Shown here: positions 25,387 through 64,000 of the stretch, in pieces
Layout: each line of letters starts with the position of its first letter
Position numbering within the stretch: position 1 is the stretch's first letter
Source of the DNA: Botryllus schlosseri
Taxonomy: Eukaryota
DNA length: 64,000 nt
Direction: 5' to 3'
Assembly (NCBI GenBank): GCA_051294905.1
Contig: CM119371.1
Span: 16,742,001-16,806,000, forward strand
Position numbers and translations under genes: made by a program
Notes under the pieces: model-generated
What the model saw: the letters and a program-made list of their open reading frames with translations, nothing else
Told to the model about the DNA's origin: nothing
Databases searched by the model: none

Positions 25387-25394
25387 ATATAGGT

Positions 25395-26200: not shown

Positions 26201-26449
26201 GTAATGATTACATGATGCACGATGGCTTGAATACAAAAGACAATACGAATCACCGCCCACTGCGTATCGACATTTGAAAGCGTGGTTCTATGTACCACTT
26301 TTGAGAATGAGAGCCCATTGTATACTGTAGACATGGTCTGAAGTTTTCTGAACAGAATGATTAGCTAAATATCCTTATGTTTCTGAGAGCTAAAACAATA
26401 CACGGTCACAGAATCGAAGAGTAGTTATATAGATCGCTCGTGACCTGGC

Positions 26450-26890
26450 AGGGGTTCTTATGGGCCCGCTCGCACGGTGCCTCGAAACTCGTGTTGGCAC
26501 GGTGACCCTTTTGACCCCCCCTATCTCTCGCACGGTGCCATTGTGTCTTATGGAGCCTCTCACACGGTAACCCTTTTCGGTATAGGCATCTCTCACACGG
26601 TGCCTCGAAAACTCGTGTTGGTGAGTCGTACTTCCAAGTATAGGCATCTCTCGCATGGTGTCATTGTGTCTTATGGAACCTCTCACACGGTAACCCTTTT
26701 CGGTATAGGCATCTCTCGCACATCGCATGGAAAACTCGTGGTGGCACATCGCCCTTTCGGGTATTGGCATCTCTCGCACGTCGTACTTTCGCATGTCGTG
26801 CTTTCGCGTATAGGTTGTGTTGGTGATTCGCCATGCGTTCTTATGGGTGTGGCGGTGATTCGTACTTTCGGGTATATACATCTCTCGACC
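26450..26890. repeat. E3 subterminal GC-rich modular array
   Basis: Modules of about 30 bp with a TCTC(G/A)CACGGT box. GAAAACTCGTG recurs at about 123-bp period. Confidence 0.85.
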
Positions 26891-29800
26891 GGTGTTGAAT
26901 ATGTATCAAGTAAATAGTCATGTGAATGAATCTTTGTTAATTTGTATATCGTGCCGCACAAACGGAAACGCGGCTTGTTGTGAGGATTAAGCAGTGCGAC
27001 CTATATTTCGAATGACCTGTGTGTGGAATTGTTTCACGGCCAGCCGCGTGCTACTATCGATTATTACACTAATCCAGTCAGCACTATTACATTCAGGAGT
27101 ATTCAGTATTCAACAGCGACACGAAAAGCGATCAACAAATAACCTCGTTCACAAACTAACACTTCAAAAATGTGTGAAATAGTTTGCAAAACCCCGCGAT
27201 CGCTGACAAGATAATGTCTCGGGCATAACCATTTTAGTGACTTGGTGTTAAAGACATACCGATCGCTCACAAGGTAATATTTCGGTAATTAGTTTGTCAC
27301 AGAGCCGTCGCAGACGGTGATTCGAAAACCAACAATTTGACACTTTCTGGTGCTTGCTATATGTTTTGACACTTAGGAACGTGGTTGACTTTAGTTGTAT
27401 GATAAGAATCATGTGAATATACAAGTAATGTATCAATTTGTCAACTTGAAATGAAACTTACTACACAAACCAAGTTGATTCGTATTTGAATGTGTTAATT
27501 CGGTACAATTCTAATTATTTTGAGAAATCTTTTGATTCGACCGTAACCGAATATTACTGACGCCGACTTTCAGCCGCATCGAATTATTCGCACATTCCGC
27601 GCCGCTGTTTTCGCACTTATAGAATCAATACAACTATAACTCTACAAGAATCAAGAATCACAAGTATGTGTATTATACAGTTATTGTCTTTATCAACACG
27701 AAATCAAACTCTTAACAAAATCACGCAACTAATCATTTGTCAGCTCTAACATTATCAAAAAATTCCAGTATTGTTGATTGAAAATCCTCGAGTCCTTATT
27801 ATCAAAAACGTTATAGTACGGTGTCGGAATCCATTCGCGGGGTGTACTAAAGCTAAATCCAGATAATCCAAAATGAAATATTTGGACTTTGACATAGTGT
27901 GACTTGAAATAGGATTGACAAACATGACTACCAACTTCCCCACAGTCCCGTTTCGATATTATACACACATTGATTTGAAACAAGTAATGAAACATCACAA
28001 CTCTATTCACGATCGTGCTTTCCGTTTGTCAAAGAGATATTTTAACATCTTACCATACTCAAAAGAATTATTCACAACATTAACAATTGTTAAAAATCTA
28101 GTTTTCACTTACTTGATTATATCACTGCAACTCATAAATTTGAATTAATTCATCCTGGTTGTATTCATATGCTCGGTCTTTTTTATTCAATTGTAAAGGT
28201 TGTTACTATTCTGAAGACAAACTATTTACTAATCGGTGCATATACGATTTGACTTGGACATATTATATTTTGAGTATACGAGATTTGAACGTCTGAACAA
28301 TAACTGAGAAATAATTTATCACAATTAAATCCGTAATATTACAGCGTAAAAGATATTGGAATGTCAGCACCTCTGTAAGGTCGTAGTTACTACCACATTA
28401 CCTAATTTACCCGACCAACTCGTCATGATCATTCCTGAAATCAACACAAACGTGACCACTGACTTGAGTTAACCACAAAACAGCATCAAGTTTTAAATCC
28501 ACTTGTAGCTTACGGCTTATTTGAATGCGGGTTATTTTTTGTTGTAATTGAGTGTACGGAAATAGTATTACGTCTCGACATATCACCATCTTACCATATT
28601 CAAAGAGTCAACCACGAAAACATTGTCAAGTAAATCCGTTTGTAACTTACCCGACCAACTCAAGCAGTTAGCCAAGCATACACGAGTCCATACAAACACT
28701 AAAACCTGAAATCCATAGCAAGTTCGGTTGTACTCATATCCCTACGACACCTCATTTTTATTCAACTTTAAAAGTCGTTACTATTCTGTAAGAAAGAGAA
28801 ATTACTACGCGGTATATTCTGCAAGACAAAGTAATTATTACTCGATATATTTTGTAAGACAAAAGTAATTACTACCCGCTGCAGGTGACTTGAGATTAAC
28901 ATAATATGTTTGAATATACGAGATTTGAAAGTCTGATCAACGTAGTTGCGACTTCATTTCTTACAATCGAACGCTGGTGTTATATTCAAAGTTATGATAT
29001 CAGAAAATATTTTACAAATGTAATTGTTTCCAGTACCCAAGACTAAAGATGTAATAGTTCCAGTATTCATACATTGAACAACCGATGCAAAATGCTTTAT
29101 TAACCCGATTCCCAACGGGTAATTGAAACGACTAAGTGTATAATCAGTATATCACAATATCGTTACTATTGAATCCAACGATTTATTGTCGGAATTTGTG
29201 ACAGAGAATTGAAACATATGCACTTTACAGAGTATGAAAATATCACTTTGAGTATCGAGTACCGTTCGAAGCTAGCGATCAATTCCTAATCATTTCAGTA
29301 ACTCCTCATTGTGCGTGCTAAATGTAAAATATCGCGAGGTTATACACTCTAAGACTTTGATCATTACAAAAGTAAATTGTGATATGTTTGTTAGATGCAT
29401 CCAATTCAACTAGAAGTGTCTAGTGCCCAACACTCGTAATATCAAAAAGTACTTGCTACACTGTAATTCACTAAACGTGTTTTGCATTGTTGTTCATTTG
29501 TAGCATTGATTGAAATTGTTTTTTGAACCCTCAAATAATAATTCCCGACATGAAACCAAGCCGCTGAAAGTCGTTACCATCACGAAGATACAACGTGTAC
29601 GATGTTTGTCAAATGTGTCCTACCTGGCCAACAGAAAACAATTTTCACTAGCTTGGTAATGAAACCGAAGTCTCCATTCGATATTTTGTTTGTGTCAAAT
29701 ACTTTGCAATAAACACACTGGAGTGGTCGAGCTTTACATCAGCAGACTGTAATCTGTAAATCAAGCTTACATCCGACTTGTAACTGTATCGTTTACCTAA

Positions 29801-30859
29801 CCGAGTTGTATGCACAGTTTGATATTTTTTGTTATTTGGTAATTGCTGAATATACTACTTCGAAATACTCCCTTGAACGTAATTTCCATCATCGTAATAA
29901 TCGAAGTACATTTGTGTCGAATTCGTAACAGTCGACTATGACATGATAAATTTTTGACAAGTTATGCTTGGAAGATTGGTTGTATATTACGAAAAATAAT
30001 TACCGCTCATATTCATACTGTTATCCATTGTTCGGTATTTTCAAACGAGTAAAATTTATTACTTGAGTTACTCCGCTTAATGCAAATGTAAACACAACCG
30101 TCTTTCAACATCGCAAAGACATCGATACAAAGTATACAATCAAACGCAACAAGTTTTACTTTTGTAGGTTGTGTAGGGTTATCCTGCATAACTCATTTCT
30201 TACCAAAGCCATATGAAATATATTCATGTTACACGAAAATATTCACTCATGCTACAAACCTGTACAATGATTGGTGGTGCTTTCAAACTGTTTCGATACC
30301 TCAAGAACTTTATTGTCTGAATGGTTGTTCATGTATCATAATAATCAAGTAATTCAACACAGAACTAGTATTAACAGAAACACCAAAGTTGTTTACACAA
30401 AAGTTTGTATGTGTACAGTATACGAATACCATGTGTAAGTCCAGCACAATTGTGTACGAGTTTAGTTAACACAATTTACGACACCGAGGTCGCGTCATCT
30501 TTCGTAAGACAACAAACCAAGGCTTCAGGATATGTCCATGTCATAGCAATGAATCAGCTACTCCAACAACAGAGTGCATATGTTTTCTAGTTACGGTGCT
30601 TACATCTTACACACAAATCAATCTACTATGCTAACGAAAAGTGGTGAGTCATCATATGGTTATCCTCACTAGTAAAACATACTATCATACAAAATGGTCG
30701 TTATAGTTTGCACACCAACGGTACATCGTACAAGTAACAAGTCTCGAGCATCCAGTTATTCAAAAAACGTGAAAGTATTTCTACACCAAGTCGTTATGTT
30801 GACGAAAGCGTATATTGTAATACCAGTAGTTAAGTAGATCGCTCGCGAACGGCTAATTT

Positions 30860-31335
30860 TTGCATGGGGCTCTTATGGCGGGGTGGCGATTCGTATTGAA
30901 AACCGGGGGTGGCGACTCGTACTTTCAGACCCCCCTCGGGGCCGCGATTCGTAATGGGTTCTTATGGACGCGGTCGTGATTCGTACTTTTGGGTATAGGC
31001 TGTGGTGGTGACTCGTATTGAAAACTCAGGGTCGTGATTCGTACTTTTGGGTATAGGCAGCGGCGGTGATGTGCCTGAAAACTCGTGGTCGTGACTCGCC
31101 TTTTTTGCTATGGGCTGCGGCGGTGATGCGCCATGAAAACTCGTGTTGGTGATGGTACCCTTTCAGACCCCCTATCGCTCGTGATGTGCCAATGGTTCTT
31201 ATGGGATCTCTGGTGATGTGCCATTGTTTCTTATGGTATCTCTGGTGATGTGTCATGTATTCTTACGGGATCTGTCGTGATTCGCCATGTGTTCTTATGG
31301 GTGCGGTCGTGATTCGCACTTTCAACCATCTCTCG
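30860..31335. repeat. E2 left subterminal array (mirror copy at about 59020-59495)
   Basis: Modules with GTGATTCGTAC or GGTGATGTGCC boxes separated by CTTATGG, GGTATAGGC and GAAAACTC linkers. Confidence 0.85.
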
Positions 31336-32539
31336 CGTGGTGTTGAATAGTCACCAACAATATCCGCACAAACGGAAACGTGGCTTGTAAGAGGATTTAC
31401 GCAGTGCGTGCGACAGACGGCGATTCGAATATCAACAATAGTCGCGTTCGCAAACTAACACTTCAAAAAGATGTGAAATATTTGTAAAATCCTACGATCG
31501 CTCACAAGATACCACTTCCGGCATATCGATCTATCACTCAATACACAACCGAAGTTGAATTGTAATTGAATGCGTAAATTTATCAACTCGACATCAAAAT
31601 TCGAAAACAACAACTTGATGCTTTATGTTCTCACTCTAATTTCATGATAAGTGTAATAAGTGCCGAATAACAGATACATCACCGGCGAGACTTGAATACC
31701 AACAAATTGTCACTTATTTCTATTCTAGCCGTAATCCTTTGTGAAGTTAACGCTTATTCAAAAAGGTGTGAAATAGTTTGCAAAACCCCGCGACCACTGA
31801 CAAGATAATGTCTCGGACATACCCATCTTTCACGACTTGGTGTCATAGCCATACCGATCGCTCACGCGGTGAAATTTTAGTAATCAGTTTGTCACAGAAC
31901 TAGATTTCACTGGTAAGATTTAATAAATACCGACTATCAGAACCATCAGTGTGGGTAACTTGAATAGCAACAAATTGTCACTTATTTCCGACGGGAAGTT
32001 CACTAAACCGCAGTACAATGCGGGATTTTGAAAAACAGATGTTCGCGAGCGCGTTTTGATATGTGTGACCCACTAACTACGTCCGCTTTGGAGACGCGAT
32101 CTGTTGTGAGGATTTCGAACGCGCACTATCGTATCGATTATTCCACTAATCCAGTCAGCACTATTACATTCAGGAGTATTCGGTATTCAGCAGCGACACG
32201 AAAAACGATCAACAAATAACTGCGTTCACAAACCAACACTTCAAAAAATGTGTGAAATAGTTTGCAAAACCCCGCGATCGCTGACAAGATAATGTCTCGG
32301 GCATAACCATTTTAGTGACTTGGTGTTAAAGACATACCGATCGCTCACAAGGTAATATTTCGGTAATTAGTTTGTCACAGAGCCGTCGCAGACGGTGATT
32401 CGAAAACCAACAATTTGACACTTTCTGGTGCTTGCTATATGTTTTGACACTTCGGAACGTGGTTGACTTTAGTTGTATGATAAGAATCATGTGAATATAC
32501 AAGTAATGTGAGTAGTATAGTCGATCGCTCGCGAACGGC

Positions 32540-33360
32540 CATTGTGGCTTATGGGTGCGGCGGTGAGGTGCCGCGAAAACTCGTGGTGGTGATGGCACCC
32601 TTTTGACCCCCCCTCTCGGCGGTGAGGTGCCATGTGTTCTTATGGATGCGGTGATGATGGCACCCTTTCGGGTATAGGCTGCGGCGGTGAGGTGCCGTGA
32701 AAACTCGTGGTGGTGATGGCACCCTTTTACACCCCCTCTCGGCGGTGAGGTGCCATGTGCTCTTATGGATGCGGTGATGATGGCACCCTTTCGGGTATAG
32801 GCTGCGGCGGTGATGTGCCTGAAAACTCGTGTTGGTGACTCGCCTTTTTTGCTATAGGCGGTGGCGGTGATGTGCCATGTATTCTTACGGGATCTGTGGT
32901 GATTCGCCATGTGTTCTTATGGATGCGGTCGTGATTCGCACTTTCAGGCATCTCTCGCGCGGTGTTGAATATGTACGAGTCACCAACAATAACCGCACAA
33001 ACGGAAACGTGGCTTGCAAGAGGATTAAGCAGTGCGACCTATATTTCGAATGACCTGCGCGCTGAATTGTTTCACAGCCAACCGCGGTGGTCGTGACTCG
33101 CCTTTTTTACTATAGGTGGTGACGGTGATTCGCCTGTCGTGTATTCTTACGGGGATCTGTGGTGACTCGCCATGTGTTCTTATGGGTGCGGTCGCATGCG
33201 GCTATTGCGTCTTATGGCGGGGGTGGTGAGCGGCTATTGATGCTAACACGAAACCCGGGGTGGCGAGCGGCACATATTTCTTATGGCGGCGGGTCTTATT
33301 TCTTATGGATGCGGTCGTGATTCGTACTTTCGGTATAGACTGCGGGCGGCATGTCGTACT
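32540..33360. repeat. E1 left subterminal array (mirror copy at about 46317-47137)
   Basis: About 123-bp higher-order repeat (GAAAACTCGTG at 32575, 32699 and 32821) with GCGGTGA(G/T)GTGCC boxes. A second, looser block lies at 33085-33360. Confidence 0.85.
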
Positions 33361-36300
33361 TTCAGCAAAAAAAGGTGTGAAATAGTTTGCCAAGTCTAGG
33401 AATCACTTGCAAGGTAATATTTTGGTATTTAGTTTACCACAGAGCCGGCGTAGACGGCGATTCGAATATCAACAATAACAACGCTCACGAATTAACACTT
33501 CAAATAGCTGTGAAATAGTTTGCAAAACCCCGCGATCGCTGACAAGATAATGTCTCGGTCATAACCATCTTTCACGACTTGATGTCATAACCATACCAAT
33601 CGCTCACAAGGTAATATTTTGATAGTTTGTCACAGAACTTGATATCGCTGGTAAGATTTAACAAGTAACGAATAACAGACCGCCAGTGTCGGTAACTTGA
33701 ATAGCGACAAATTGTCACTTATTTCCGCTCTAACCCTAATCCTTTGTGAAGTGAACGCTTATTCAAAAGGGTGTGATATAATTTTAAAATCCTACGACAC
33801 TCACAGGGTAATGCTTCAGACAAAGCGATCCCTCATGCCCGCTCACAAGGTAATATTTCCGTAATTAGTTTGTCACAGAGTCGTCGCAGACGGTGATTCG
33901 TAAACCAACAATTTGACACTTTCTGGTATGGTCGCTATATGTTTTTGACACTTTGTCCGTGTTTGACTTTAGTTGTATGATAAGAACCATGCGAATATTC
34001 AAGCAATGTATCAATTGAATGAAATGAAACTTACTACACAGCTCAAGTTGATTCGTATTTGAATGTGTTGATCCGGTACAATTCTAATTAATTTGAGAAA
34101 TCTTTTTAACGTGATCTTCTGATTCGACCGTAACCTGAATATTACTGACGCCGACTTTCAGTCACATTGAATTATTCACACATTCCACGCCGCTGTTTTA
34201 ACAGTTATAGAATCAATACCAACTATCTCTAACCCGATAATATTCAATCATTTTGGTAATTTGCCAACTTTAAATCCATTCGCGGATGTACTAAAGGTAA
34301 ATCCAAATAATCCAAAATGAAATATTTGGACTTTGACATAGTCTGAATTGAAATAGATTGACAAACATGACTACCAACTTTCACGCAGTCCCATTTCGAT
34401 ATTATATGCACATTGATTTGAAACAAGTAATGCAACATTGCAACTCTATTCGCGATCCCGCTTTCCGTTTGTCAAAGAGATATTTTAACATCTTACCATA
34501 CTCAAAAGAATTCTTCACAACATTAACAATTGTTAAAAATCTAGTTTTCACTTACTTGATTATATCACTACAACCCACAAACTTGAATTAATTCATCCTG
34601 GCTGTATTCGTATGATCGGTCTTTTTTATTCGATTGTAAAGGTCGTTACTATTCTGAAGACAAAGTATTTACTAATCGGTACATATACGATTTTACTTGG
34701 ACATATTATATTTTGAGTATACGAGATTTGAATGTCCGAACAATAACTGAGAATTAATTTATCACAATTAAATCCGTATATTACAGCGTAAAAGATATTG
34801 GGGGGTCAGCAACTCTGTACGGTCGTAGTTACAACCACATTAACTAATCTACCCAGGCAACTCGTCATGATCATTCCTGAAATCAACACAAACACGACCA
34901 CTGACTTGAGTTAACCGCGAAACAGCATCAAGTTTTAAATCCGCTTGCAGCTGACGGATTATTCGAATGCATCGATGGAGAATATTATTGAACTCGTCGG
35001 TATTGTTACTTCAACAAATTACACCGACTGCGAAAGTTAATATCGAATGGTAAGACTTGATCACATATTTGTTGATCACAGACACGACAAAAAAACATTA
35101 CCGAGATTTTATAAACTAGTCATATTACTCTACACATCTATCAATATCAAAATGCGAGTCATCCAATTTATCTACTAAAGTAACATTGCACTTTCGGATT
35201 CGGTATAGTCATACAAATTGTATTAAATCCAAAATCAAAACAAAAGGATTTTATTTTTTAGTTTATTGAAATCAAATCATTCGTCTTCGACTTGTGCTTT
35301 TCTAGATTGCACGCAACAATTCGTTACGAACGAGCTGTAACCAAAGTTAAGAATTCTTTGTGTCCACAGATATAGAAGATGAATATAGCTAACACAATCG
35401 CGAATCGATGTTTCAGAGTATTTCACGGATGTAATAAACTTGTTAGTGTCCCCTATCTAAAAAGTATGCATGCGTTCGATTTCCATACCGACTGTTGCGA
35501 TGTTTAGGATTCGTTTACAATGACCAAGAGTGAGGATTTAACATCAAAGTCGTTACTGGAGGTATTCACAACAGAGAATCGAAACATTACACAGTGTGAA
35601 AATATATCTTTGATATCAAAGCACTATCCCAAGTACACGATTAATACTCAACTCCGTTCACACTTTCTATAGAACGTGCTAAATGTAAAATATCACGAGG
35701 TTGCACTCTAAGACTTTGATCATTACAAAAGTAAATTGAATATGTCTGCTCGACGCATTCAATTCAACTAGAAATGTCTAGTGCACAACAATCGTAATAT
35801 TAAGGAAGTACTTGCTACACTGTAATTCACTTAACGTGTTTTGCATTGTTGTTCATTTGTAGTATTGATTGTTTTTGAACCCCCAAATAATAATTCCCGA
35901 CATGAAACCAAACCGCTGAAAGTCGTTACCAACACAAAGAAACACTTTGTATGATGTTTGCCAAATGTACCCTATGGTTAGGTGTACCAGAATTATTTGT
36001 GTAACACATACACCGACAATGTAATCGAAAATTTTTCCGTTGTCATTCGCTAAAGTAAATGTCATCACAATACTCTGTCACTAAAGATCTTACTTGTATC
36101 TGATTGAATCACCGATAATTAACTCGCTAAATCAAACCATAAGGAAATTTCACTCACTCATCAGATATGAAACAGCGTCGCTTAATCGGTGTAGATCGTT
36201 TTTCTAAATGCAAATCATACCGGACCAACAGAAAAACAATTTTCACTCACCTTGTAATGAAACCAAGTGTAGTGGACCTTCGTTCAATATTTTGTTTGTG

Positions 36301-37899
36301 TCAAATACTTTGCGATAAACACACTGGAGTGGTCGAGCTTTACATCAGCAGACTGTAATCTGTAAATCAAGCTTACATCCGACTTGTAACTGTATCGTTT
36401 ACCTAACCGAGTTGTATGCACAGTTTGATATTTTTTGTTATTTGGTAATTGCTGAATATACTACTTCGAAATACTCCCTTGAACGTAATTTCCATCATCG
36501 TAATAATCGAAGTACATTTGTGTCGAATTCGTAACAGCCGACTATGACATGATAAATTTTTGACAAGTTATGCTTGGAAGATTGGTTGTATATCACGAAA
36601 AATAATTACCGCTCATATTCATACTGTTATCCATTGTTCGGTATTTTCAAACGAGTAAAATTTATTACTTGAGTTACTCCGCTTAATGCAAATGTAAACA
36701 CAACCGTCTTTCAACATCACAAAGACATCGATACAAAGTATACAATCAAACGCAACAAGTTTTACTTTTGTAGGTTGTGTATGGTTATCCTGCATAACTC
36801 ATTTCTTACCAAAGCCATATGAAATATATTCATGTTACACGAAAATATTCACTCATGCTACAAACCTGTACAATGATTGGTGTTGCTTTCAAACTGTTTC
36901 GATACCTCAAGAACTTTATTGTCTGAATGGTTGTTCATGTATCATAATAATCAAGTAATTCAACACAGAACTAGTATTAACAGAAACATCAGAGTTGTTT
37001 ACACAAAAGTTTGTATGTGTACAGTATACGAATACCATGTGTAAGTCCAGCACAATTGTGGTATCCAATACGAGTTTAGTTAACACAATTTACGACACCG
37101 AGGTCGCGTCATCTTTCGTAAGACAACAAACCAAGGCTTCAGGATATGTCCATGTCATAGCAATGAATCAGCTACTCGAACAACAGAGTGCATATGTTTT
37201 CTAGTTACGGTGCTTACATCTTACACACAAATCAATCTACTTTGCTAACGAAAAGTGGTGAATCATCATATGGTTATCCTCACTAGTAAAACATACTATC
37301 ATACAAAATGGTCGTTATAGTTTGCACACTAACGGTACATCGTACAAGTAACAAGTCTCGAGCATCCGGTTATTCAAAAAACGTGAAAGTATTTCTACAC
37401 CAAGTCGTTATGTTGACGAAAGCGTATATTGTAATACCATGATCGATTTGCATTCGTTGGTCACAAACTGTCACTACTCTAAATAATTATTTTTCACTCA
37501 AACACAAAAGCATACTTGTCGCCAATCGTTTTCATCAAGTACGAGTTCAAGAAACTTACTACGACATGAATTTTTATTTTTATGTTGTGTAAATAGGTAA
37601 TAATTATTTCAAGTAACACTATATCAACATCATCGAGTTGTGCTAATAGATTTACATGCGATCTTGTGGTTTTCATCGGGACATACAGCACGAACTAACT
37701 GTAGACTCCTCTCTGTTGTACAGCTACTCGGTAATCGAAATGCATTAACATGTAAACAACGATCTTGTTTCGTCACACCAAAAATATGTTCACTGTCGCG
37801 ATACTCCGCACAAGACGTGCATAGTCTTTTCACACTCGTAATAGTATACCAACGGCAAGCGATAACGTTTAACAAGACCAACGACACTGAACCCACGAC

Positions 37900-38680
37900 G
37901 TTTACCTATGTAAAATTACCACTTTCACTTGCCAGTCCATCGTTTACCTGACTAAACATATTATTTTCCTTTGGAGATCTGATGTTTACCCAGAGTAAGA
38001 AACCTTTTTCACTTGGAAATCTATTTTTTCCTTGGCTAACAAACCTTTTTTCACTTGTAAATATGTTTTTTCCTTGGCTAACAAACCTTTTTTCACTTGG
38101 AAATCTATTTTTTCTCTGGTTAACAAACCTTTTTCCCCGGGTAACAAACCTTTTTCCCTGAGCAACAAGCCATTTTCACTTGGTGGTCCGTCGTTTACCT
38201 GAGTAAAAATATCATTTTCCTTTGGGGATCTGGCGTTTACCCGGTGTAACAATACATTTTCGCTTGGAAAAATACTTTTACCTAGAGTAACTAATCATTT
38301 TCTCCTGGGTAACAATCCCTTTTCGTCTGGAAACTATCATTTAACTGAGTACCAATACCGTTTTCACTTGGAAATACATTTTTTCCCTGGGTAACAAACC
38401 TTTTTCCCTGAGCAACAAACCATTTTCACTTGCAAATATATTTTTTCCTGGGTAACAAACCTTTTTCACTTGGAAATATATTTTTTCCCTGGGTAACAAA
38501 CCTTTTTCGCTTGGAAATATATTTTTTCCTTGAGCAACAAACCATTTTCACTTGGCGGGTCGTCGTTTACCTGACTAAAAATATCATTTTCCTTTGGAGA
38601 TCTGGCGTTTACCCAGTGTAACAATACATTTTCTCTTGGTCATCTAGCTTTTCCTAGAGTAACAAAACCATTTTCATTTT
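37900..38680. repeat. About 41-bp satellite in the E1 left arm (mirror at about 40997-41777)
   Basis: Unit similar to CCTTTTTCACTTGGAAATATATTTTTTCTCTGGGTAACAAA. Confidence 0.9.
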
Positions 38681-52054: not shown

Positions 52055-52962
52055 AATCTGAAGTATGACATATAGACACACAAACATGGAACCTTGACAT
52101 GGTTATTCGCACGACGGTGAAAGTAAACTGTACAACATATACCAATAGAGCGTTCACAGTCAAATATGCGAACCATGCACAATCATATACCCAGATTTTT
52201 GTTGGATATGTACAAATCCGATAAATCGATACATTTCTTTCCCTTCGACGTCAATAATACAAAGGTCATTCCAATTCGTCGCTCGAATGTGAGGTTCGTC
52301 TGGTGTAAAATCCATGTCAAATAACACCAAAGTGTGCTTTCCGTGTTTTATTATTTCCACCGTCGCTTCTTGTCTGTGTCGTAACACTATGGTGCAGGGA
52401 CTTGAAAAACGGTGGATTGTGAAACGGATTGACATGACCAACAGAATCGAGGTCAATAGACTTGTGACGATGTCGTTTCAAAATGCTCCGATATGACGAG
52501 CGCAACCTCGATCTCTTGTGGTGACGACCGTTTCGAAATGTTACCGGACGAGCTAGACCCTTACGAAAGTGTGTTTTATGATTGTGTGTGAAATCACGAG
52601 GTAGTGTTCTATTGTGGTGTACGATTGCAGTCTTCATTCCACAGAAACACACCTTATTGGATCACAGTATCAGTCCGAGATTTGCATAATCACTGTTCAC
52701 GATATTTGTCTGGAGTCGTTATGTGGGAGTAGCGACATCCATTGATCGTGACTGAAAGACTGGTCGCAATCATTTCGAGCACCGTACTTCGATAGTTCAC
52801 CATGGTCAAACGCTGCTGCAGAAAACTTCGGTGTGGACAACACATTGATCGATGTATCCAATTGATCTGGGTGGTCCGTCTACAGATAGGGTCATGACTA
52901 TCTTGCGATAACACCATCGAATAAATCAGTGAACGGTGTCGATATATCGATGTAATAGCGCG
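52055..52962 (-). other. E2 unique spacer, 908 bp
   Basis: Homologous to the E1 spacer, same orientation. Confidence 0.85.
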
Positions 52963-55900
52963 GACTCAGAGTCATTGCAATGTGGCTTATTGGTATTGTT
53001 ATCGGGTGTGATGACATTCGATCTGCATCAAAATTACCGGCTATGATAATGTCTGTGGATCGATGTTTGTATACCAACACATTGCATGCAATGTCACACA
53101 CCTCCATTTACGCGTATACTGATGTGGGCAAACAAGCGCGACGTATGTCTGGATGGTATTTTTTCGTGGAAACACAGGGTGTAACATGTTTACTTTGAAT
53201 ATTGTTCATTGGTTTATCGATTCAGAGTTGATATCCGGATCCGGTTACATACTTTATCAGGGTTTCCGATTTCAAACTGAATGTCGAGACATGCATTGAC
53301 CAATAAAGACACAATATAGTAAACATGCGGGGGAAAACTCGACCTGGAATTGTTATCGCGATGGGTGACATAAATCCAACCGTTTTCCGAACACCGTTAT
53401 CCACATACCAACCATCGTCAAGGAGGTGTTTTATTCAGACATTTTGACTCTGGAAAATCCAAAGCACGAACCCGGACATCACAGAACTATCGAAGTCTAT
53501 TGTCCAATTTTCCAGAACATGCATTTCTGTGTACAAGAGCGCATTGCATGTGGGTAACCGACGATTTTGATGGGATGCACCAACACAAGTGAATATTTGA
53601 TTAGACAAATGTATCGGAGTCGTTGTTGGTGTATATTTTGTCGCTGTTCGCTGTAAGAAAATACAAAAATATCAAATTGTCGGTGTGGTTGTCAGATTTC
53701 AAAATGAAAATGGTTTTGTTACTCTAGGAAAAGCTAGATGACCAAGAGAAAATGTATTGTTACACTGGGTAAACGCCAGATCCCCAAAGGAAAATGATAT
53801 TTTTACTCAGGTAAACGACGGATCACCAAGTGAAAAAGGTTTGTAACCCAGGGAAAAATATATTTCCAAGCGAAAAAGATTTGTTACCCAGCGAAAAAAA
53901 TATATTTCCAAGTGAAAAAGGTTTGTTACCCAGGATAAAATATATTTGCAAGTGAAAAAGGTTTGTTGCTCAGGGAAAAAGGTTTGTTACCCGCGGAAAA
54001 AATATATTTCCAAGTGAAAAAGGTTTGTTACCCAGAGAAAAAATATATTTCCAAGTGAAAAAGGTTTGTTACCCAGAGAAAAAATATATTTCCAAGTGAA
54101 AAAGGTTTGTTAACCAGAGAAAAAATATATTCCCAAGTGAAAAAGGTTTATTACCAAGAGAAAAAATATATTTCCAAGTGAAAAAGGTTTGTTACTCAGA
54201 GAAAAAATATATTTCCAAGTGAAAAAGGTTTGTTACTCAGAGAAAAAATATATTTCCAAGTGAAAAAGGCTTATTACCAAGAGAAAAAATATATTTCCAA
54301 GTGGAAAAGGTTTGTTACCAAGAGAAAAAATATATTTCCAAATGAAAAAGGTTTGTTATCCAGGGCAAAAATAGATTTCCAAGTGAAAAGGGGTTTGTTA
54401 TTCAGGCCAAAAATAGATTTCCAAGTGAAAAGGGGATTGTTACACTGGGTAAACGATAAATCTCCAAAGGACAATGGTATTTTAGTTAGGTAACGGTGGA
54501 CCTCCAAGTGAAAATGATAATTTTACACAGGTAAACGTCAGTTGTCCAAACCAGAATGATATTTTTACTTGGATAGGTATCTTGTGTTCAACGCCGGTAG
54601 TGTGATTGGTCTTGTTAAACGTAGTTACCGAGTTGTACAATTATGAAGGGGCGGAAAATGAAATTGCTATTATGATCGTCAGAAGATTGTTGTATGTAGA
54701 TTTGACAGTAACCCTATCATTCGCATATGACAAACACAATCATGGCCATTAACTAACTTGCTCGGTCTAGATCAATGCAAAAGAGATGATTCGTTTTTTG
54801 AAACCGTAGCGAAGACCACATGTAAATCGATGTGATAGACTTCTATCTCCTTACAGTCAGTCGTGTCGTGTCCATTTTAATACGGGGCCCACGGGTATGA
54901 CATGCACACACTAACGCCGTGAACAGAAATCGATGATTTTGATTAATAAAAATATTTCTTGACTACATCGGAATGTCTATGTTGTAGAAAGTAAATACTT
55001 TTATGGTGTTGTGTGTTTAATGAAAGCGATTGGTTACAAGTATGTGTTGGAGAAAGAAAATTTATTTTTCTGTATGTGACGAAATGAAAATAGATTCGTG
55101 GTTTTAATTGGATTGCGCTGTTTAATGTACGTTTCAACAGGTAGACTTGACACTGAACAACAATTCGACCCACAAAGCATATTCGTTGTATGATTTGTCA
55201 CTGGTGTGTAAAGGGTTAGGAATATTTTGAATGATAATATCTACTAGCTGTTTTGTTGTGAGAGCGATCATGTGATGACTCAGCACTTTTCGTTAGCAAA
55301 GTAGATTGATCTATGTGAAAGATGTAAGAACCGTGGCTAGAAACATATGTACTTTGTTGTTGGGGAACTGCTATGGTGTTGACATAACCCTCTGGAAGTG
55401 AGTATGCTTTTCTTTCACGAAAGTTTACGTGGCTCCGTTGTAATAAATTTGTGTTGACTAAACTCGAATGGATACTGCAATTGTGCTGGACTTACACATG
55501 GTATTCGCATACTGTACACATACAAACTTTTGTGTAAACAACTCTGATGTTTCTGTTAGTACTAGTTCTGTGTTGAACTATTTGATTATTAAGATACATG
55601 AACACCCATTCAGACAATAAAGGTCTTGTGATATCGAAACAGTTTGTAGAGTCTAACCAACCATTCTTTAGTTTCGTAATGTGAGAATATCGAGTAAAGT
55701 TAATTACTTAGTGCGATGTTAATATCCTTCGTACTTTTGTAAGAGTTGTGGGATAACATACAAAGTAACTAATTGACACAAACAAAATGGTGATATTGTG
55801 AAGATGATGCCGCAACAAGTGATATTTTGTATCGGGTGTTTGTACTTTAGGAATAGCGGAGTGTGCGATATTTTGGATATGTGTGCACGGTTGTTAACTA

Positions 55901-58900
55901 CGGTTGTTCTTGGGTCTTGCGTTGAGTAAATCATAACTATGTCTAGAATTCAAACACATCCAAGTAAGTTCTTTAGTGACTATGATTACATCTACTTTGA
56001 CGAGAGGAAATGGGAAAATTAAAATGGATACTACTGACGAACAAAAAGTGCAAAATGGTTTTATCAGATTTAGGTGTAGGATATCTTTTCGATTTCTTTA
56101 CCAGAGTGTGTTTTACAAATATCTCTAGTACACCAACGTATAGGGTACAATTATCAAACGTCGTACAAATTGTTTATGCGACGGCAACGACTTTGGGTTA
56201 CTTGGTTTCGATCCTTTTGTAAAAGATTGTCGGACAATGGGGTTATAATCTTCTGTAATGATCGAGGTACGTGATCAAGTTTCCAATCAATTAATAATCG
56301 GACATACGACTTTGGTTTAACGAATCATAATATTTCTAAAATCATAAGACACAAATCGAAATTCATATCAATCAAGACCTTTGCATGCTTTGAGTTTTGT
56401 GATGGCGTTTATTTCACCTGATAGAAATGAGCTTGTATCAATAGTAGCACGAAACGCATTTATCATTTTCGGTGTTATTGTTCACCCACTTCGACTGGTA
56501 CTCGATGCCAAAAGTGATATTTTCTAATAACCTTTACCACAACATCGGGTCTAATTATCGTGAATACTTTAATAATCAAGTCGTGGTCGAGCATTACAAA
56601 ATCTCATATATCAAATCAATGTGTCAATCCTTATGTTTACAGTATGATACCTTTCAATGTAAAACCGGCGTTTGATTGTAAGAAATGAATTCTCAACTAC
56701 GTTGGTCAGGCATTCAAATCCGGTATACTCAAATGTAATATGTTAATCTCAAACCACACACCGAGTAGTATTTACTTTGGTTTATAAAATATATCAAGTA
56801 GTAATTACTTTGTCTTGCAAAATAGTAACGACTTTTACAGTTGAAAAACAAAAGACGCGTCGTAGGGATATGAATACAACCGAACTTGCTATGGATTTTG
56901 GATTGTAGTGATTACTCGCGTAGTCTTGTCTACTTTTCGTAAGGATACTGTTGAGTTGGTTGGGTAAGTTACAAACGGATTGAATTGACAAGGTTTTTTG
57001 TATTTTACTCTTTTGTTCATGGGAAGATGCTAAAATGTTGAGACGTAATACTATTTCCGTTCACTCGATTACAACAAAAAATAACCTGATAGTTTGTTCA
57101 AGGTTTCGACAAATAGATTGAAAAATTCCGATTTAACTCATCGCGTCGCAAGTCGATCGCGGTACGCACAAGTGGTTGTCAAGTTAGAAATATTTACAAC
57201 AGGTGCTATTTCATTGATTGATTCTATTGTGTGTAGTAACACATTAAAATATCGCGATAGTATTTACTGAAACTCTATTTGATAAACGGAAAGCAGGATC
57301 GTGAATAGAGTTGTAATGTAACATTACTTGTTTCAAAGTATAATCTTGAAATGTGGCTGGATCAAAGTTGGTAGTCATGTTTGTCAATCCTATTTCAATT
57401 CACACTATGTCAAAGTCCAAATATTTCATTTTGGATTATCTGGATTTATTTTTAGTACATCCCACGAATGGGTTCCGACGCCGCGCTATAACATTTTTGA
57501 TGATAAGGACTCGAGGATTTTCATGATAGAGTTGACGAGTGATAAGATGTGTGTTTTTGTTAAGAGTTTGATTTCAAGTTAATAAAGACAATAACTGTGT
57601 AATGAACATACTTGTGATTCTTGATTCTTGTAGAGTTATAGTTGGTATTGATTCTATAAGTGTGAAAACAGTGGTGCAGAATGTGCGAATAATTCGATGC
57701 GGCTGAAAGTCGGCGTCAGTAATATTCAGGTTATGGTCGAATCAAAAGATTTCTCAAAATAATTAGAATTGTACCGAATTAACCCATTCAGATACGAATC
57801 AACTTGGTTTGTGTAGTAAGTTTCATTTCAAGTTGTCAAATTGACACATTACTTGTATATTCACATGATTCTTATCATACAACTAAAGTCAACCACGTTC
57901 CGAAGTGTCAAAACATATAGCAAGCACCAGAAAGTGTCAAATTGTTGGTTTTCGAATCACCGTCTGCGACGGCTCTGTGACAAACTAATTACCGAAATAT
58001 TACCTTGTGAGCGATCGGTATGTCTTTAACACCAAGTCACTAAAATGGTTATGCCCGAGACATTATCTTGTCAGCGATCGCGGGGTTTTGCAAACTATTT
58101 CACACATTTTTTGAAGTGTTGGTTTGTGAACGCAGTTATTTGTTGATCGTTTTTCGTGTCGCTGCTGAATACCGAATACTCCTGAATGTAATAGTGCTGA
58201 CTGGATTAGTGGAATAATCGATACGATAGTGCGCGTTCGAAATCCTCACAACAGATCGCGTCTCCAAAGCGGACGTAGTTAGTGGGTCACACATATCAAA
58301 ACGCGCTCGCGAACATCTGTTTTTCAAAATCCCGCATTGTACTGCGGTTTAGTGAACTTCCCGTCGGAAATAAGTGACAATTTGTTGCTATTCAAGTTAC
58401 CCACACTGATGGTTCTGATAGTCGGTATTTATTAAATCTTACCAGTGAAATCTAGTTCTGTGACAAACTGATTACTAAAATTTCACCGCGTGAGCGATCG
58501 GTATGGCTATGACACCAAGTCGTGAAAGATGGGTATGTCCGAGACATTATCTTGTCAGTGGTCGCGGGGTTTTGCAAACTATTTCACACCTTTTTGAATA
58601 AGCGTTAACTTCACAAAGGATTACGGCTAGAATAGAAATAAGTGACAATTTGTTGGTATTCAAGTCTCGCCGGTGATGTATCTGTTATTCGGCACTTATT
58701 ACACTTATCATGAAATTAGAGTGAGAACATAAAGCATCAAGTTGTTGTTTTCGAATTTTGATGTCGAGTTGATAAATTTACGCATTAAATTACAATTCAA
58801 CTTCGGTTGTGTATTGAGTGATAGATCGATATGCCGGAAGTGGTATCTTGTGAGCGATCGTAGGATTTTACAAATATTTCACATCTTTTTGAAGTGTTAG

Positions 58901-59999
58901 TTTGCGAACGCGACTATTGTTGATATTCGAATCGCCGTCTGTCGCACGCACTGCGTAAATCCTCTTACAAGCCACGTTTCCGTTTGTGCGGATATTGTTG
59001 GTGACTATTCAACACCACGCGAGAGATGGTTGAAAGTGCGAATCACGACCGCACCCATAAGAACACATGGCGCATCACCACATATCTCGTAAGAATACAT
59101 GACACATCACCAGAGATACCATAAGAAACAATGGCACATCACCAGAGATCCCATAAGAACCATTGGCACATCACGAGCGATAGGGGGTCTGAAAGGGTAC
59201 CATCACCAACACGAGTTTTCATGGCGCATCACCGCCGCAGCCCATAGCAAAAAAGGCGAGTCACGACCACGAGTTTTCAGGCACATCACCGCCGCTGCCT
59301 ATACCCAAAAGTACGAATCACGACCCCGAGTTTTCAATACGAGTCACCACCACAGCCTATACCCAAAAGTACGAATCACGACCGCGTCCATAAGAACCCA
59401 TTACGAATCGCGGCCCCGAGGGGGGTCTGAAAGTACGAGTCGCCACCCCCGGTTTTCAATACGAATCGCCACCCCGCCATAAGAGCCCCATGCAAAAATT
59501 AGCCGTTCGCGAGCGATCTACTTAACTACTAATACCATGATCGATTTACATTCGTTGGTCACAAACTGTCACTACTCTAAATAATTATTTTTCACTCAAA
59601 CACAAAAACATACTTGTCGCCAATCGTTTTCATCAAGTACGAGTTCAAGAAACTTACTACGACATGAATTTTTATTTTTATGTTGTGTAAATAGGTAATA
59701 ATTTATTCAAGTAACACTATATCAACATCATCGAGTTGTGCTAATAGATTTACATGCGGTCTTGTGGTTTTCATCGGGACATACAGCACGAACTAACTGT
59801 AGACTCCTCTCTGTTGTACAGCTACTCGGTAATCGAAATGCATTAACATGTAAACAACGATCTTGTTTCGTCACACCAAAAATATGTTCACTGTCGCGAT
59901 ACTCCGCACAAGACGTGCATAGCCTTTGCACACTCGTAATAGTATACCAACGTCAAGCGATAACGTTTAACAAGACCAACGACACTGAACCCACGACGT

Positions 60000-60490
60000 T
60001 TACCTATGTAAAATTACCACTTTCACTTGCCAGTCCATCGTTTACCTGACTAAACATATTATTTTCCTTTGGAGATCTGACGTTTACCCGGAGTAAGAAA
60101 CCATTTTCACTTGTAAATATATTTTTTCCTTGGCTAACAAACCTTTTTTCACTTGTAAATATATTTTTTCTCTGGTTAACAAACCTTTTTCACTTGGAAA
60201 TATATTTTTTCTCTGGTTAACAAACCTTTTTCACTTGGAAATATATTTTTCCCTGGGTAACAAACCTTTTTTCACTTGGAAATATATTTTTTCTCTGGGT
60301 AACAAACCTTTTTCACTTGGGAATATATTTTTTCCCCGATCAACAAACCTTTTTCCCTTGGAAATATATTTTTTCCCCGAGCAACAAACCATTTTCACTG
60401 AGCAACAAACCCTTTTCTCCCCAGGCAACAAACCCTTTTCGTTTGGAAAACTATCATTTACCTGAGTACCAATACCATTTTCGTTTTGAA
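60000..60490. repeat. About 41-bp satellite in the E3 left arm (mirror at about 62899-63389)
   Basis: Same unit, shorter array. Confidence 0.9.
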
Positions 60491-61235
60491 AACTGACAAC
60501 TACACCGGTCAATTTGATATTTTTTGTATATTGTTACAACAGACAGTGACAAAATATACACCAACAACGACTCCGATACATTTGTGTAATCAAATATTCA
60601 CTTGCTCTGATGCATCCCATCAAAATCATTGGTTACTCACATACAATAACAATGTGCTGTTGTACATCGACATGTATGTTTTCGGAATTGGCGAATAAAG
60701 GGGTTTCTGATATGTCCGTGATGTCCGGGTTCGTGCTTTGGATTTTCCAGAGTCAAAATGTCTGAATAAAACACCTCCTCGACGATGGTTGGTATGTGGA
60801 TAACGGTGTTCGGAAAACGGTTGAATTTATGTCACCCATCGCGATAACAATTCCAGGTCGAGTTTTCCCCGCATGTTTACTATATTGTGTCTTTATTGGT
60901 CATGTATGTCTCAACATTCAGTTTGAAATCGGAAACTCTGATAAAGTACGTAACCGGATCCGGATATCAACTCTGAATCGATAAACCAATGAACAATATT
61001 CAAAGTAAACATGTTACACCCTGTGTTTCCACGAAAAAATACCATCCAGACATACGTCGCGCTTGTTTGCCCACACCAGTATATGCGTAAATGGAGGTGT
61101 GTGACATTGCATGCAATGTGTTGGTATACAAACATCGATCCACAGACATTATCATAGCCGGTAGTTTTGATGTAGATCGAATGTCATCACACCCGATAAC
61201 AATACCAATAAGCCACATTGCAATGACTCTGAGTC

Positions 61236-62153
61236 CGCGCTATGACATCGATATCTCGACACCGTTCACTGATTTATTCGATGGTGTTATCGCGTTGTAA
61301 CATTACAAGATAGTCATGACCCTATCTCCGGACAGACCACCCAGATCAATTGGATACATCGGTCAATATCCGTCGTGTTGTCGACACCGAAGTTTTCTGC
61401 TGCAGCGTTTGACCAATGTGAACTATCGAAGTACGGGTGCTCGAAATGATTGCGATCAGTCTTTCATTCACGATGCATGGATATCGCTACTCCCACATAA
61501 CGACTCCAAATAAATATCGTGCAAATCTCGGACTGATACTGTGATCCAATAAGGTGTGTTTCTGTGGAATGAAGACTGCAATCGTACACCACAATAGAAC
61601 ACTACCTCGTGATTTCACACGCAAGCATATTACACACTTTCGTAAGGGTCCAGTTCGTCCGGCGACATTTCGAAACGGTCATCGCCACAGGAGATCGAGG
61701 TTGGTCTCGTCATATCGGAGCATTTTGAAACTGTCATCACCACAAGGTTATTGACGTCGATTCTGTTGGTCATGTCAATCCGTTTCACAATCCACCGATT
61801 TTCAACTCCCCGCACCATAGTGTTACGACACAGACAAGAAGCGTCGGTGGAAATAATAAAACACGGAAAGCACACTTTGGTGTTATTTGACATGGATTTT
61901 ACACCCGACGAACCTTACATTCGAGCGATGCATTGGAATGACGCTTGTATTATTGACGTAGAAGGAACAGAAATGTATCGATTTATTGGTTTCGTACATA
62001 TCCAACAAAAACCAGGGTATGTGATTGTGCGTGGTTCGCATATTCGACTGTGAACGCTCTATTGGTATATGCTGTATAGTTCACTTTCACCGTCGTGCGA
62101 ATAACCCATGTTACGGTTCCATGTTTGTGTGTCTGTATGTCATGCTTCAGATT
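61236..62153 (+). other. E3 unique spacer, 918 bp, opposite orientation to E1 and E2
   Basis: ORF 61751..62053 (+) corresponds to 39495..39776 (-) and 52160..52456 (-). Confidence 0.85.
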
Positions 62154-64000
62154 GACTCAGAGTCATTGCAATGTGGCTTATTGGTATTGTTATCGGGTGT
62201 GATGACATTCGATCTACATCAAAACTACCGGCTATGATAATGTCTGTGGATCGATGTTTGTATACCAACACATTGCATGCAATGTCACACACCTCCATTT
62301 ACGCATATACTGGTGTGGGCAAACAAGCGCGACGTATGTCTGGATGGTATTTTTTCGTGGAAACACAGGGTGTAACATGTTTACTTTGAATATTGTTCAT
62401 TGGTTTATCGATTCAGAGTTGATATCCGGATCCGGTTACGTACTTTATCAGAGTTTCCGATTTCAAACTGAATGTTGAGACATACATGACCAATAAAGAC
62501 ACAATATAGTAAACATGCGGGGAAAACTCGACCTGGAATTGTTATCGCGATGGGTGACATAAATTCAACCGTTTTCCGAACACCGTTATCCACATACCAA
62601 CCATCGTCGAGGAGGTGTTTTATTCAGACATTTTGACTCTGGAAAATCCAAAGCACGAACCCGGACATCACGGACATATCAGAAACCCCTTTATTCGCCA
62701 ATTCCGAAAACATACATGTCGATGTACAACAGCACATTGTTATTGTATGTGAGTAACCAATGATTTTGATGGGATGCATCAGAGCAAGTGAATATTTGAT
62801 TACACAAATGTATCGGAGTCGTTGTTGGTGTATATTTTGTCTCTGTCTGTTGTAACAATATACAAAAAATATCAAATTGACCGGTGTAGTTGTCAGTTTT
62901 CAAAACGAAAATGGTATTGGTACTCAGGTAAATGATAGTTTTCCAAACGAAAAGGGTTTGTTGCCTGGGGAGAAAATGGTTTGTTGCTCAGTGAAAATGG
63001 TTTGTTGCTCGGGGAAAAAATATATTTCCAAGTGAAAAAGGTTTGTTGATCGGGGAAAAAATATATTCCCAAGTGAAAAAGGTTTGTTACCCAGAGAAAA
63101 AATATATTTCCAAGTGAAAAAAGGTTTGTTACCCAGGGAAAAATATATTTCCAAGTGAAAAAGGTTTGTTAACCAGAGAAAAAATATATTTCCAAGTGAA
63201 AAAGGTTTGTTAACCAGAGAAAAAATATATTTACAAGTGAAAAAAGGTTTGTTAGCCAAGGAAAAAATATATTTACAAGTGAAAATGGTTTCTTACTCCG
63301 GGTAAACGTCAGATCTCCAAAGGAAAATAATATGTTTAGTCAGGTAAACGATGGACTGGCAAGTGAAAGTGGTAATTTTACATAGGTAAACGTCGTGGGT
63401 TCAGTGTCGTTGGTCTTGTTAAACGTTATCGCTTGACGTTGGTATACTATTACGAGTGTGCAAAGGCTATGCACGTCTTGTGCGGAGTATCGCGACAGTG
63501 AACATATTTTTGGTGTGACGAAACAAGATCGTTGTTTACATGTTAATGCATTTCGATTACCGAGTAGCTGTACAACAGAGAGGAGTCTACAGTTAGTTCG
63601 TGCTGTATGTCCCGATGAAAACCACAAGACCGCATGTAAATCTATTAGCACAACTCGATGATGTTGATATAGTGTTACTTGAATAAATTATTACCTATTT
63701 ACACAACATAAAAATAAAAATTCATGTCGTAGTAAGTTTCTTGAACTCGTACTTGATGAAAACGATTGGCGACAAGTATGTTTTTGTGTTTGAGTGAAAA
63801 ATAATTATTTAGAGTAGTGACAGTTTGTGACCAACGAATGTAAATCGATCATGGTATTACAATATACGCTTTCGTCAACATAACGACTTGGTGTAGAAAT
63901 ACTTTCACGTTTTTTGAATAACTGGATGCTCGAGACTTGTTACTTGTACGATGTACCGTTGGTGTGCAAACTATAACGACCATTTTGTATGATAGTATGT

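Follow-up and report, generated by a model that had tools for sequence, protein, structure and literature searches.

Three giant palindromes occupy positions 26420-64000 of a stretch of 64,000 nucleotides from Botryllus schlosseri (referred to here as the window), which corresponds to positions 16742001-16806000 of contig CM119371.1 (C1) in assembly GCA_051294905.1 (495 Mb, 219 contigs). The question raised by this locus is what kind of element these palindromes represent, and how they move and keep their two arms alike. The original prediction, made from the sequence of the window, described mobile palindromes with the ends of Polinton/Maverick elements and no recognisable genes, and proposed that one end of a Polinton-like genome had been copied back onto the other, giving a satellite mobilised in trans by a helper. 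Examination of the window and of the remaining genome indicates that the palindromes are probably helper-dependent derivatives of an endogenous Polinton/Maverick family, with arms that would be re-symmetrised by copy-back.

The palindromes were found with an inverted-repeat scan and self-BLAST to be nested rather than side by side, with Ea inserted in the left arm of Eb and Eb inserted in the left arm of Ec, each insertion being confined to one arm (Table 1). Ea is 14,656 bp in length with a spacer of 882 bp between its arms. Eb measures 14,044 bp when the Ea insert is set aside, with arms of 6568 bp that differ at six positions in their outer piece and at four positions in 4897 bp of their inner piece, and a spacer of 908 bp. 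Ec measures 13,126 bp without Eb, with arms of 6104 bp that differ at four positions, a spacer of 918 bp and a right end that lies past the window (window coordinate 68257). Nested inserts set aside, inverted repeats make up 94.0%, 93.5% and 93.0% of Ea, Eb and Ec, respectively, which matches the share of 93-94%, the arms of 6.1-6.9 kb and the spacers of about 0.9 kb given in the original prediction. All three elements start with AGTAGT-N6-GATCGCTCG (N6 denoting six unspecified nucleotides), with the other end being its complement. Ea and Eb end with ACTACT and possess exact 6-bp target-site duplications (AATGTG and AATACC, respectively); these features, likewise described previously, were all read again here.

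A search of the genome with these termini, as had been suggested for checking the prediction, gave hundreds of matches. The terminal motif was identified 440 times in forward and 441 times in reverse orientation, compared to 0 and 2 matches for a reversed control, showing that its occurrence is not due to chance. The first 100 motif places listed comprised 38 forward/reverse pairs and 24 unpaired motifs; 22 of these pairs span 13-15 kb, and N6 is the same at both ends in 35 of them. The genomic sequence fetched for the analysis, approximately 270 kb in total, included ten further pairs (Y01-Y10), all of which were found to have perfect 6-bp duplications between left and right flanks that are unrelated to each other. 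Nine of the ten are giant palindromes; their arms measure 6.2-6.8 kb and are 98.4-99.96% identical, with tandem arrays of unequal length accounting for the lower identities. A further fetched copy, Z, is 14,193 bp in length with the duplication CTTCTG. Taken together, a perfect 6-bp duplication was observed for 14 of the 15 elements with both ends examined (Ea, Eb, Y01-Y10, Z and the autonomous element X1 described below), the exception being Ec. Probing the genome with 1.2 kb of mid-arm Ea sequence gave 40 scored matches at 98-100% identity (2459 first-look candidates), with 36 of these 40 best matches forming 18 convergent inverted pairs that lie 7.7-9.3 kb apart. Transposition of elements lacking enzymes of their own is thus seen in dispersed copies with distinct flanks and duplications, in their insertion into one another and in copies that are 98-100% identical.

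Some loci depart from this pattern. Y06 (C1:17194145-17203775) is 9.6 kb in length with the duplication AACGTA, N6 being unlike at its two ends, and it contains an off-centre internal palindrome of approximately 6.2 kb with no clear spacer and without the spacer open reading frame (ORF) described below; it perhaps represents an intermediate, or an element that has been rearranged. A 13.7 kb pair (C1:33469672-33483361) carries two terminal motifs 153 bp apart at each end, which could mean either that the terminal 153 bp were duplicated in mirror image or that one element is inserted within the very ends of another. On contig C2, region 28391782-28413704 holds a gap of 100 N and a perfect direct repeat of 7215 bp with two copies of the spacer ORF, likely to be an assembly problem at nested palindromes.

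Typical Polintons are 13-25 kb in length with inverted ends of 100-1500 bp and duplications of 5-8 bp (excerpt of PMC10748475). The proposed search for a helper led to X1 (C1:5923771-5942033), an element of 18,263 bp that is not palindromic, with inverted ends of approximately 443 bp, the same terminal pattern as the palindromes and the duplication GCCGAG. X1 encodes a protein-primed polymerase (pPolB) of 1214 amino acids (PF03175 at 5.5e-8), an integrase of 359 amino acids (rve at 2.7e-16, plus a chromodomain) and an A32-like ATPase of 215 amino acids with weak matches. A 432-amino-acid ORF product of X1 has hundreds of animal homologues. A sequence search of the PDB with this protein gave no match; its predicted fold is a double jelly-roll with a predicted local distance difference test score (pLDDT) of 86, and Foldseek matched the model to capsid proteins of an iridovirus and PBCV-1 (E of approximately 1e-16), of Sputnik (query-based TM score, TMq, of 0.66) and of mavirus (7e-13). 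Judged by its modelled structure, it is a double jelly-roll capsid protein. The gene set and ends of X1 are those of a typical Polinton/Maverick, as set out in the excerpts of PMC10748475 and PMC5499653, and with its shared ends, pPolB, integrase, ATPase and capsid protein X1 establishes that a Polinton helper exists in the same genome. A protein search of the genome with the X1 polymerase gave 38 scored copies of 92-100% identity, 34 of them free of stop codons (438 first-look candidates), and one polymerase copy was located inside another motif pair of 15.8 kb (C2:27873469-27889298). Searching the genome for family PF03175 returned nothing, which was judged a false negative, since all 38 scored matches of the X1-polymerase search were real; Pfam-family searches of this genome can give such false negatives.

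The original prediction was right about the Polinton ends and 6-bp duplications, which are the same as those of X1. On the helper side, the comparison drew on X1 in full plus 1.5 kb from another autonomous copy. BLASTN of Ea and Eb against X1 gave short terminal matches only, and TBLASTN of all X1 ORFs of at least 80 amino acids against the window matched only the end repeat region, with no remnant of a polymerase. Across the fetched elements, homology to X1 reaches no further than 0.2-1.7 kb inward from the arm ends, with subterminal homology of 72-91% over 0.2-1.4 kb. The arm of Y04 resembles the right end of X1 out to 1.4 kb from the terminus (88.6% over 949 bp), and that of Y09 resembles the left end (X1 603-1116, 90%) before jumping to X1 3971-4140, indicating that subfamilies descend from left or right Polinton ends. 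Several other elements share a block of 200-260 bp matching X1 700-975.

Pfam gave no match for 65 ORFs of at least 50 amino acids from the Ea arm and spacer, with no polymerase, integrase, capsid gene or ATPase identified among them. No arm ORF was found that stays open in diverged copies, nor any coding signal in the inner arms. An alternative genetic code was considered as a reason for the missing ORFs and dropped, since X1 and the flank contain long ORFs in the standard code. Having no genes for a polymerase, integrase, ATPase or capsid, the palindromes would have to be mobilised in trans; this part of the original prediction gains support from the ends shared with X1 and the lack of helper genes. 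In all testable respects the palindromes have the properties of non-autonomous Polinton derivatives, and with no polymerase and no integrase they fall outside the definition of a Polinton. What they have kept of a Polinton is likely to be the terminal origin and integrase-recognition sequences with up to about 1.7 kb of subterminal DNA, all helper genes having been lost.

The two arms of an element were found to evolve in concert. For the inner 1.2 kb of the arm, the nearest neighbour was the element's own partner arm for all 24 arms of 12 elements, with partner identities of 98.3-100% compared to 79-97% for the best other arm. In six quartets formed from pairs of elements, 2047 differences between elements were present in both arms and 45 in a single arm; no arm-specific variants were common to two elements, and two differences followed other patterns. 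The arms are mosaics of modules common to subfamilies. Ea and Y03, for example, are 93.6% identical over 3.6 kb, yet differ in their ends and spacer type, and Z has the same spacer protein as Ea with different arms. In 11 elements with both arms compared (Ea, Eb, Y01-Y05 and Y07-Y10, with Ec and Z outside this comparison), every kilobase-scale indel and mosaic breakpoint was mirrored. By contrast, the chromosomal insertions of Ea in Eb and of Eb in Ec are confined to one arm. Our reading of these patterns is that one arm appears to be regularly rebuilt from the other, and that this happens as the elements propagate and not while they sit in the chromosome.

Several types of spacer were distinguished. 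Type A (Ea, Eb, Ec, Y01, Y05, Y08, Y10) is 864-922 bp in length with identities of 84-93% among its members, type B (Y03, Y04, Y07) is approximately 980 bp, and the spacers of Y09 and Y02 measure 3061 bp and 332 bp. The junction between arm and spacer is the same in all seven type-A elements, and at least four junction types were distinguished (A, B, Y09, Y02). Several junction types fit repeated re-formation of the palindrome, and the shared type-A junction fits copy-back or conversion. All spacers other than those of Y02 and Y06 share a core consisting of an ORF of 91-93 codons with conserved start and stop, which is intact in 14 of 15 copies in the fetched DNA, that of Y03 having one stop codon. 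Between spacer types, synonymous divergence (dS) is approximately 1.0-1.6 and non-synonymous divergence (dN) approximately 0.25, so that dN/dS is 0.16-0.3, compared to mostly 0.2-0.5 within type A. A genome search with the spacer ORF gave 150 scored matches (1188 first-look candidates), all 150 of which were real and 143 free of stop codons, and nine genomic copies were found to be identical to the Ea spacer protein. X1 contains no counterpart of this ORF. By its pattern of substitution, the spacer ORF is a conserved orphan gene under purifying selection across lineages. The description of the elements as having no genes is thus wrong; what stands of it is that none is recognisable to Pfam in the 65 ORFs.

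For the spacer protein, Pfam gave nothing below E = 0.1 and PHROGs gave nothing, and no relative outside its own family was found among 5.8 and 1.8 billion proteins. A word-indexed protein search returned only the protein of the window itself, and an exhaustive HMMER search returned one 91-amino-acid representative of the same family. Two other hits of the HMMER search, a WD40 protein and a second protein with repeats, were judged to be spurious sums of weak repeat matches. The predicted fold of the spacer protein is all-beta with nine strands (pLDDT 72.8), and a Foldseek comparison of this model found nothing at E of 0.001 or below in the PDB or among viral models. A beta-sandwich of the small heat-shock/CS type was the best hit of a wide fold search with a Z of 5.0, which is within the range of noise, and no fold was assigned. 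Atlas look-alikes of the protein (at most 0.91, bacterial clusters) were not used. One bulk RNA run, of which approximately 6% was read, contributed 9 reads that lay mostly in the arms, a yield that speaks neither for nor against expression. As a best guess, the protein might serve the replication or packaging of the element that encodes it, one conceivable way being to bind the 41-bp arrays of the arms.

Ends with AGT reiteration suit a protein-primed polymerase with jump-back initiation, as in the case of adenovirus. Under the proposed mechanism, the rve integrase of the helper would insert the palindromes and its protein-primed polymerase would replicate them from their AGT-reiterated ends. 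Synthesis from one end would displace a strand and, once past the spacer, the displaced arm would offer the template sequence of the second arm. A template switch onto this displaced arm, or self-priming of the folded displaced strand, would result in both arms being derived from one. The element would be re-symmetrised in each cycle of replication, and a single end would be enough to rescue a copy. Copying back of an arm would account for the symmetry, for rescue from one embedded end and for the loss of one-armed insertions in the progeny. More speculatively, the narrow size range of the palindromes, at approximately 75-90% of helper length, would reflect packaging in the helper capsid (the 13-15 kb of most listed pairs comparing with 15.8-18.3 kb for two autonomous copies), and the elements would then be satellites comparable to snap-back defective genomes. 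An extended scenario, in which the palindromes are germline satellites of an endogenous Maverick virus that are copied back in each cycle, sized to its capsid and equipped with a 91-amino-acid protein of their own exploiting the helper, is put forward tentatively and is doubtful as a whole.

Ec is the element to which the duplication pattern does not extend. Instead of a target-site duplication, its flanks were found to be inverted copies of each other, 3137 bp on the left and 3135 bp on the right (Table 1), and the recurrence of the left flank in inverted form at the right explains why there is no duplication. The mirror ends abruptly at C1:16813392 with no transposon terminus, and Ec together with its mirrored flanks forms a palindromic structure of 48 kb. 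One explanation is that host replication or repair turned back at the Ec spacer and duplicated the left arm together with its flank, which would be a chromosomal instance of the proposed copy-back; the other is a fold-back made by the assembler, perhaps onto a haplotype without Eb. Inside the mirrored flank (window positions 23783-24941) lies a two-part dispersed repeat of 1.2 kb with dozens of copies at 84-94%.

The palindromes as such might be artefacts of assembly, for example fold-back chimeras of long reads. The flanks of Ec, mirrored over approximately 3.1 kb at near 100% with no duplication, are what an assembly fold-back at a palindrome would give, and a locus with a gap of 100 N and a 7.2 kb perfect direct repeat (X4) is in keeping with this. 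However, 14 of 15 elements (13 non-autonomous elements and X1) lie between different flanks with direct 6-bp duplications, which fold-back cannot create, the insertions are one-armed, and arms are 99.6-99.96% identical rather than 100%. The Ea spacer and the two junction bins are covered, at an identity of at least 95%, by contigs from runs of three other studies (30/30, 25/30 and 30/30 bins); as 31-nt bridging on both sides of a junction was seen in none of the 24 records listed of approximately 1,200, this coverage is weak support. Direct duplications, distinct flanks, one-armed nesting and non-zero arm divergence together indicate that the palindromes are not fold-back errors of assembly, an explanation that is left with almost no probability. 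A palindrome that arose once at a Polinton-ended non-autonomous element, with arms kept identical by gene conversion in the chromosome and no copy-back, is a more serious alternative, since concerted arms fit copy-back but also gene conversion. Gene conversion is established for large genomic palindromes; it is further favoured by a junction that is constant among the seven type-A elements in spite of a spacer identity of only 84-93%, and by the homologous core in spacers of all types. Set against this, the one-armed insertions of Ea (14.7 kb) and Eb (28.7 kb) persist without having been removed or transferred to the opposite arm, yet kilobase-scale indels and breakpoints are mirrored in all 11 elements compared. 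There are also several junction types rather than one, and young copies that are 98-100% identical to each other leave little time for conversion at each locus. Chromosomal conversion without copy-back is on this evidence unlikely, with some weight remaining.

The likeness of the palindromes to foldback elements, with long inverted arms, internal tandem arrays and a central loop, raises the further possibility of an unrelated superfamily, or of an element autonomous through its own small protein, whose Polinton ends are coincidental or captured. The palindromes do have a conserved gene of their own, but the 21-bp terminal pattern, the subterminal repeats and up to 1.4 kb of sequence are common to them and an element encoding pPolB, integrase and capsid protein, the duplication has the same length of 6 bp, and the 91-amino-acid protein, modelled as all-beta and lacking a nuclease or integrase signature, is unlikely to be a transposase. 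An origin of this kind is highly improbable. An equally slight chance is given to the host keeping or tolerating the elements as a source of long-hairpin RNA, with read-through of the arms giving rise to small RNAs against Polintons. Near-perfect inverted repeats of 6-7 kb with outer parts homologous to helper ends, and a base-composition skew mirrored in the two arms, would suit such a role; against it, the likeness to the helper is limited to the outer 0.2-1.7 kb of the arm, the elements number hundreds of copies or more with insertions like those of a selfish element, and the purifying selection on the ORF, seen across copies, suggests that the element itself is the unit selected.

Several observations weigh against helper-dependent Polinton derivatives with copied-back arms, the reading preferred here. 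The inner 4-5 kb of the arms showed no detectable relation to X1, so that the elements are not simple copy-back products of the helper genome; the inner arm could come from a helper lineage other than X1. The original proposal that one Polinton end had been copied back is consequently retained in part, as some outer arms do derive from an X1-like left or right end and the arms behave as copies of each other, while for the unrelated inner arm it explains at most the origin of the ends. Conservation of the type-A junction would also be compatible with a single ancestral palindrome followed by homogenisation, and the identity of the arms could come from gene conversion between them in the chromosome. 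Arm divergence is out of nesting order, with 10 differences in 6568 bp for Eb and 4 in 6104 bp for the older Ec, a poor fit to arms that are identical at insertion and then decay in a clock-like manner, unless Ec was re-symmetrised or mis-assembled. Two, Y02 and Y06, of the 14 non-autonomous elements (Ec not counted) that are complete, read at both ends and flanked by a 6-bp duplication have no spacer ORF, and the ORF is thus not strictly required in cis. Lastly, extrachromosomal replication is a proposal, and packaging and interference with the helper are speculation.

The palindromes were compared with known systems. They share with autonomous Polintons the 5'-AG...CT-3' ends, the AGT reiteration, the subterminal repeats and the 6-bp duplications, and differ from them in having no polymerase, integrase or capsid genes, in an orphan gene that is absent from X1, and in inverted repeats of 6.1-6.9 kb (93-94% of the element) compared to approximately 0.44 kb in X1. 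In adenovirus vectors, inverted repeats within the genome lead to rearrangements induced by replication, and tail-to-tail dimers arise that are favoured in packaging owing to a size suited to the capsid (excerpt of PMC2518115). Defective and vector genomes of adenovirus described in the same excerpt, among them genomes devoid of all viral genes, resemble the palindromes as protein-primed, strand-displacing replicons with palindromes that keep the ends around a unique or hairpin centre, and in being helper-dependent and near packaging size (PMC2518115). They are, however, products of the laboratory or of a single infection, whereas the palindromes form a diversified family integrated in the germline at hundreds of copies, with duplications, a gene of their own and arms of mostly non-helper sequence. 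Snap-back or copy-back genomes of RNA viruses are likewise self-complementary over nearly their full length, which is thought to result from a switch of the polymerase to the nascent or displaced strand, and they rely on the machinery of a helper (excerpt of PMC13506859). Unlike the palindromes, these genomes consist of RNA, are non-coding and do not integrate; for the palindromes, interference is conjectural.

Foldback transposons such as Drosophila FB have very long inverted arms with tandem sub-repeats and a central loop, and are often non-autonomous. FB elements differ in their ends, transposase family and duplication length, and in arms that are largely tandem repeats, compared to approximately 0.4-0.8 kb of tandem arrays in each 6-7 kb arm here; the palindromes thus do not have the arms of a foldback element, and their ends match Polinton. 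Palindromes of sex chromosomes have arms of more than 99.9% identity around a unique spacer and evolve in concert by gene conversion, and differ in being immobile single loci with no terminal motifs or duplications, as opposed to a dispersed family. A search of the full-text literature, with Repbase and Dfam lying outside it, found no description of giant palindromic or non-autonomous Polintons or of the spacer ORF.

Table 1. Features of the nested palindromes and the left flank of Ec, in window coordinates
Feature	Coordinates	Strand	Remarks
Left flank of Ec	23283-26419	.	Inverted copy right of Ec at 68258-71392, outside the window; first 743 bp 100% identical (no mismatch)
Ec left arm, outer piece	26420-30824	+	Starts AGTAGT-TATATA-GATCGCTCG; last 6 bp AATACC are the Eb duplication; 4406 bp, 1 mismatch to right arm
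Ec subterminal 65/123-bp repeats	26523-26780	.	Homologous to inverted-repeat ends of X1
Counterpart subterminal arrays	Eb 30972-31317, 59054-59383; Ea 32556-32939, 46738-47121		
Eb, whole	30825-59530	.	AATACC at 30819-30824 and 59531-59536
Eb left arm, outer piece	30825-32510	+	1686 bp, 99.644% to 57845-59530
Ea, whole	32511-47166	.	AATGTG at 32505-32510 and 47167-47172
Ea left arm	32511-39397	+	6887 bp, 99.956% complementary to 40280-47166
Ea 41/42-bp tandem array, inner arm	37964-38688	.	Mirror at 40990-41714
41/42-bp arrays elsewhere	Eb 50574-51312, 53702-54443; Ec 60083-60440, 62949-63296		
Ea spacer, type A	39398-40279	.	
Ea spacer ORF	39495-39770	-	91 codons and stop
Ea right arm	40280-47166	-	
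Eb left arm, inner piece	47173-52054	+	99.918% to 52963-57859
Eb spacer, type A	52055-52962	.	
Eb spacer ORF	52163-52435	-	91 codons
Eb right arm, unbroken	52963-59530	-	
Ec left arm, inner piece	59531-61235	+	First 6 bp are the second AATACC; 1705 bp, 3 mismatches to right arm
Ec spacer, type A	61236-62153	.	
Ec spacer ORF	61772-62050	+	93 codons
Ec right arm	62154-64000	-	Runs on to 68257; without Eb

The 41/42-bp arrays are situated approximately 0.7-1.4 kb from the spacer, and their length can be unequal between the two arms of one element. In the window from 32000 to 64000, guanine-cytosine (GC) skew is mirrored, left arms having values of approximately -0.11 to -0.14 and right arms values of +0.09 to +0.2, meaning that the strand with the terminus at its 5' end is C-rich throughout. 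No match to Rfam was found at gathering thresholds from 26000 to 64000. To the left of the palindromes, an ORF of 733 amino acids with a reverse-transcriptase domain (17504-19702; PF00078, 1.9e-35) lies in a 2.3 kb repeat (approximately 17610-19946) that has at least 39 further copies of 97-100% identity on many contigs. The repeat represents a retroelement family that is very young and probably active.

Replication and movement of Polintons have so far been inferred almost wholly from gene content, and this family provides natural experiments on both. Elements that retain no more of a Polinton than its ends, and still reach hundreds of copies or more, define the requirements in cis, at approximately 0.2-1.7 kb per end. 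The symmetry of the arms, best explained by fold-back of a strand, is a testable signature of protein-primed strand-displacement replication and, if the extended scenario above is true, would be the first sequence-level trace that such Polinton replication has left in a genome of animal type. In that case, the fold-back duplication at Ec would be the same mechanism spilling into host DNA. Giant, near-perfect palindromes are known sources of genome instability, and the 3.1 kb of mirrored flank at Ec may exemplify this. Provided that the first-look counts are nearly correct (approximately 1200 copies of approximately 14 kb), the family would make up approximately 3% of the genome. The orphan gene, kept by selection in more than 100 copies, points to a function of this gene in the relationship between a parasite and a parasite of its own.

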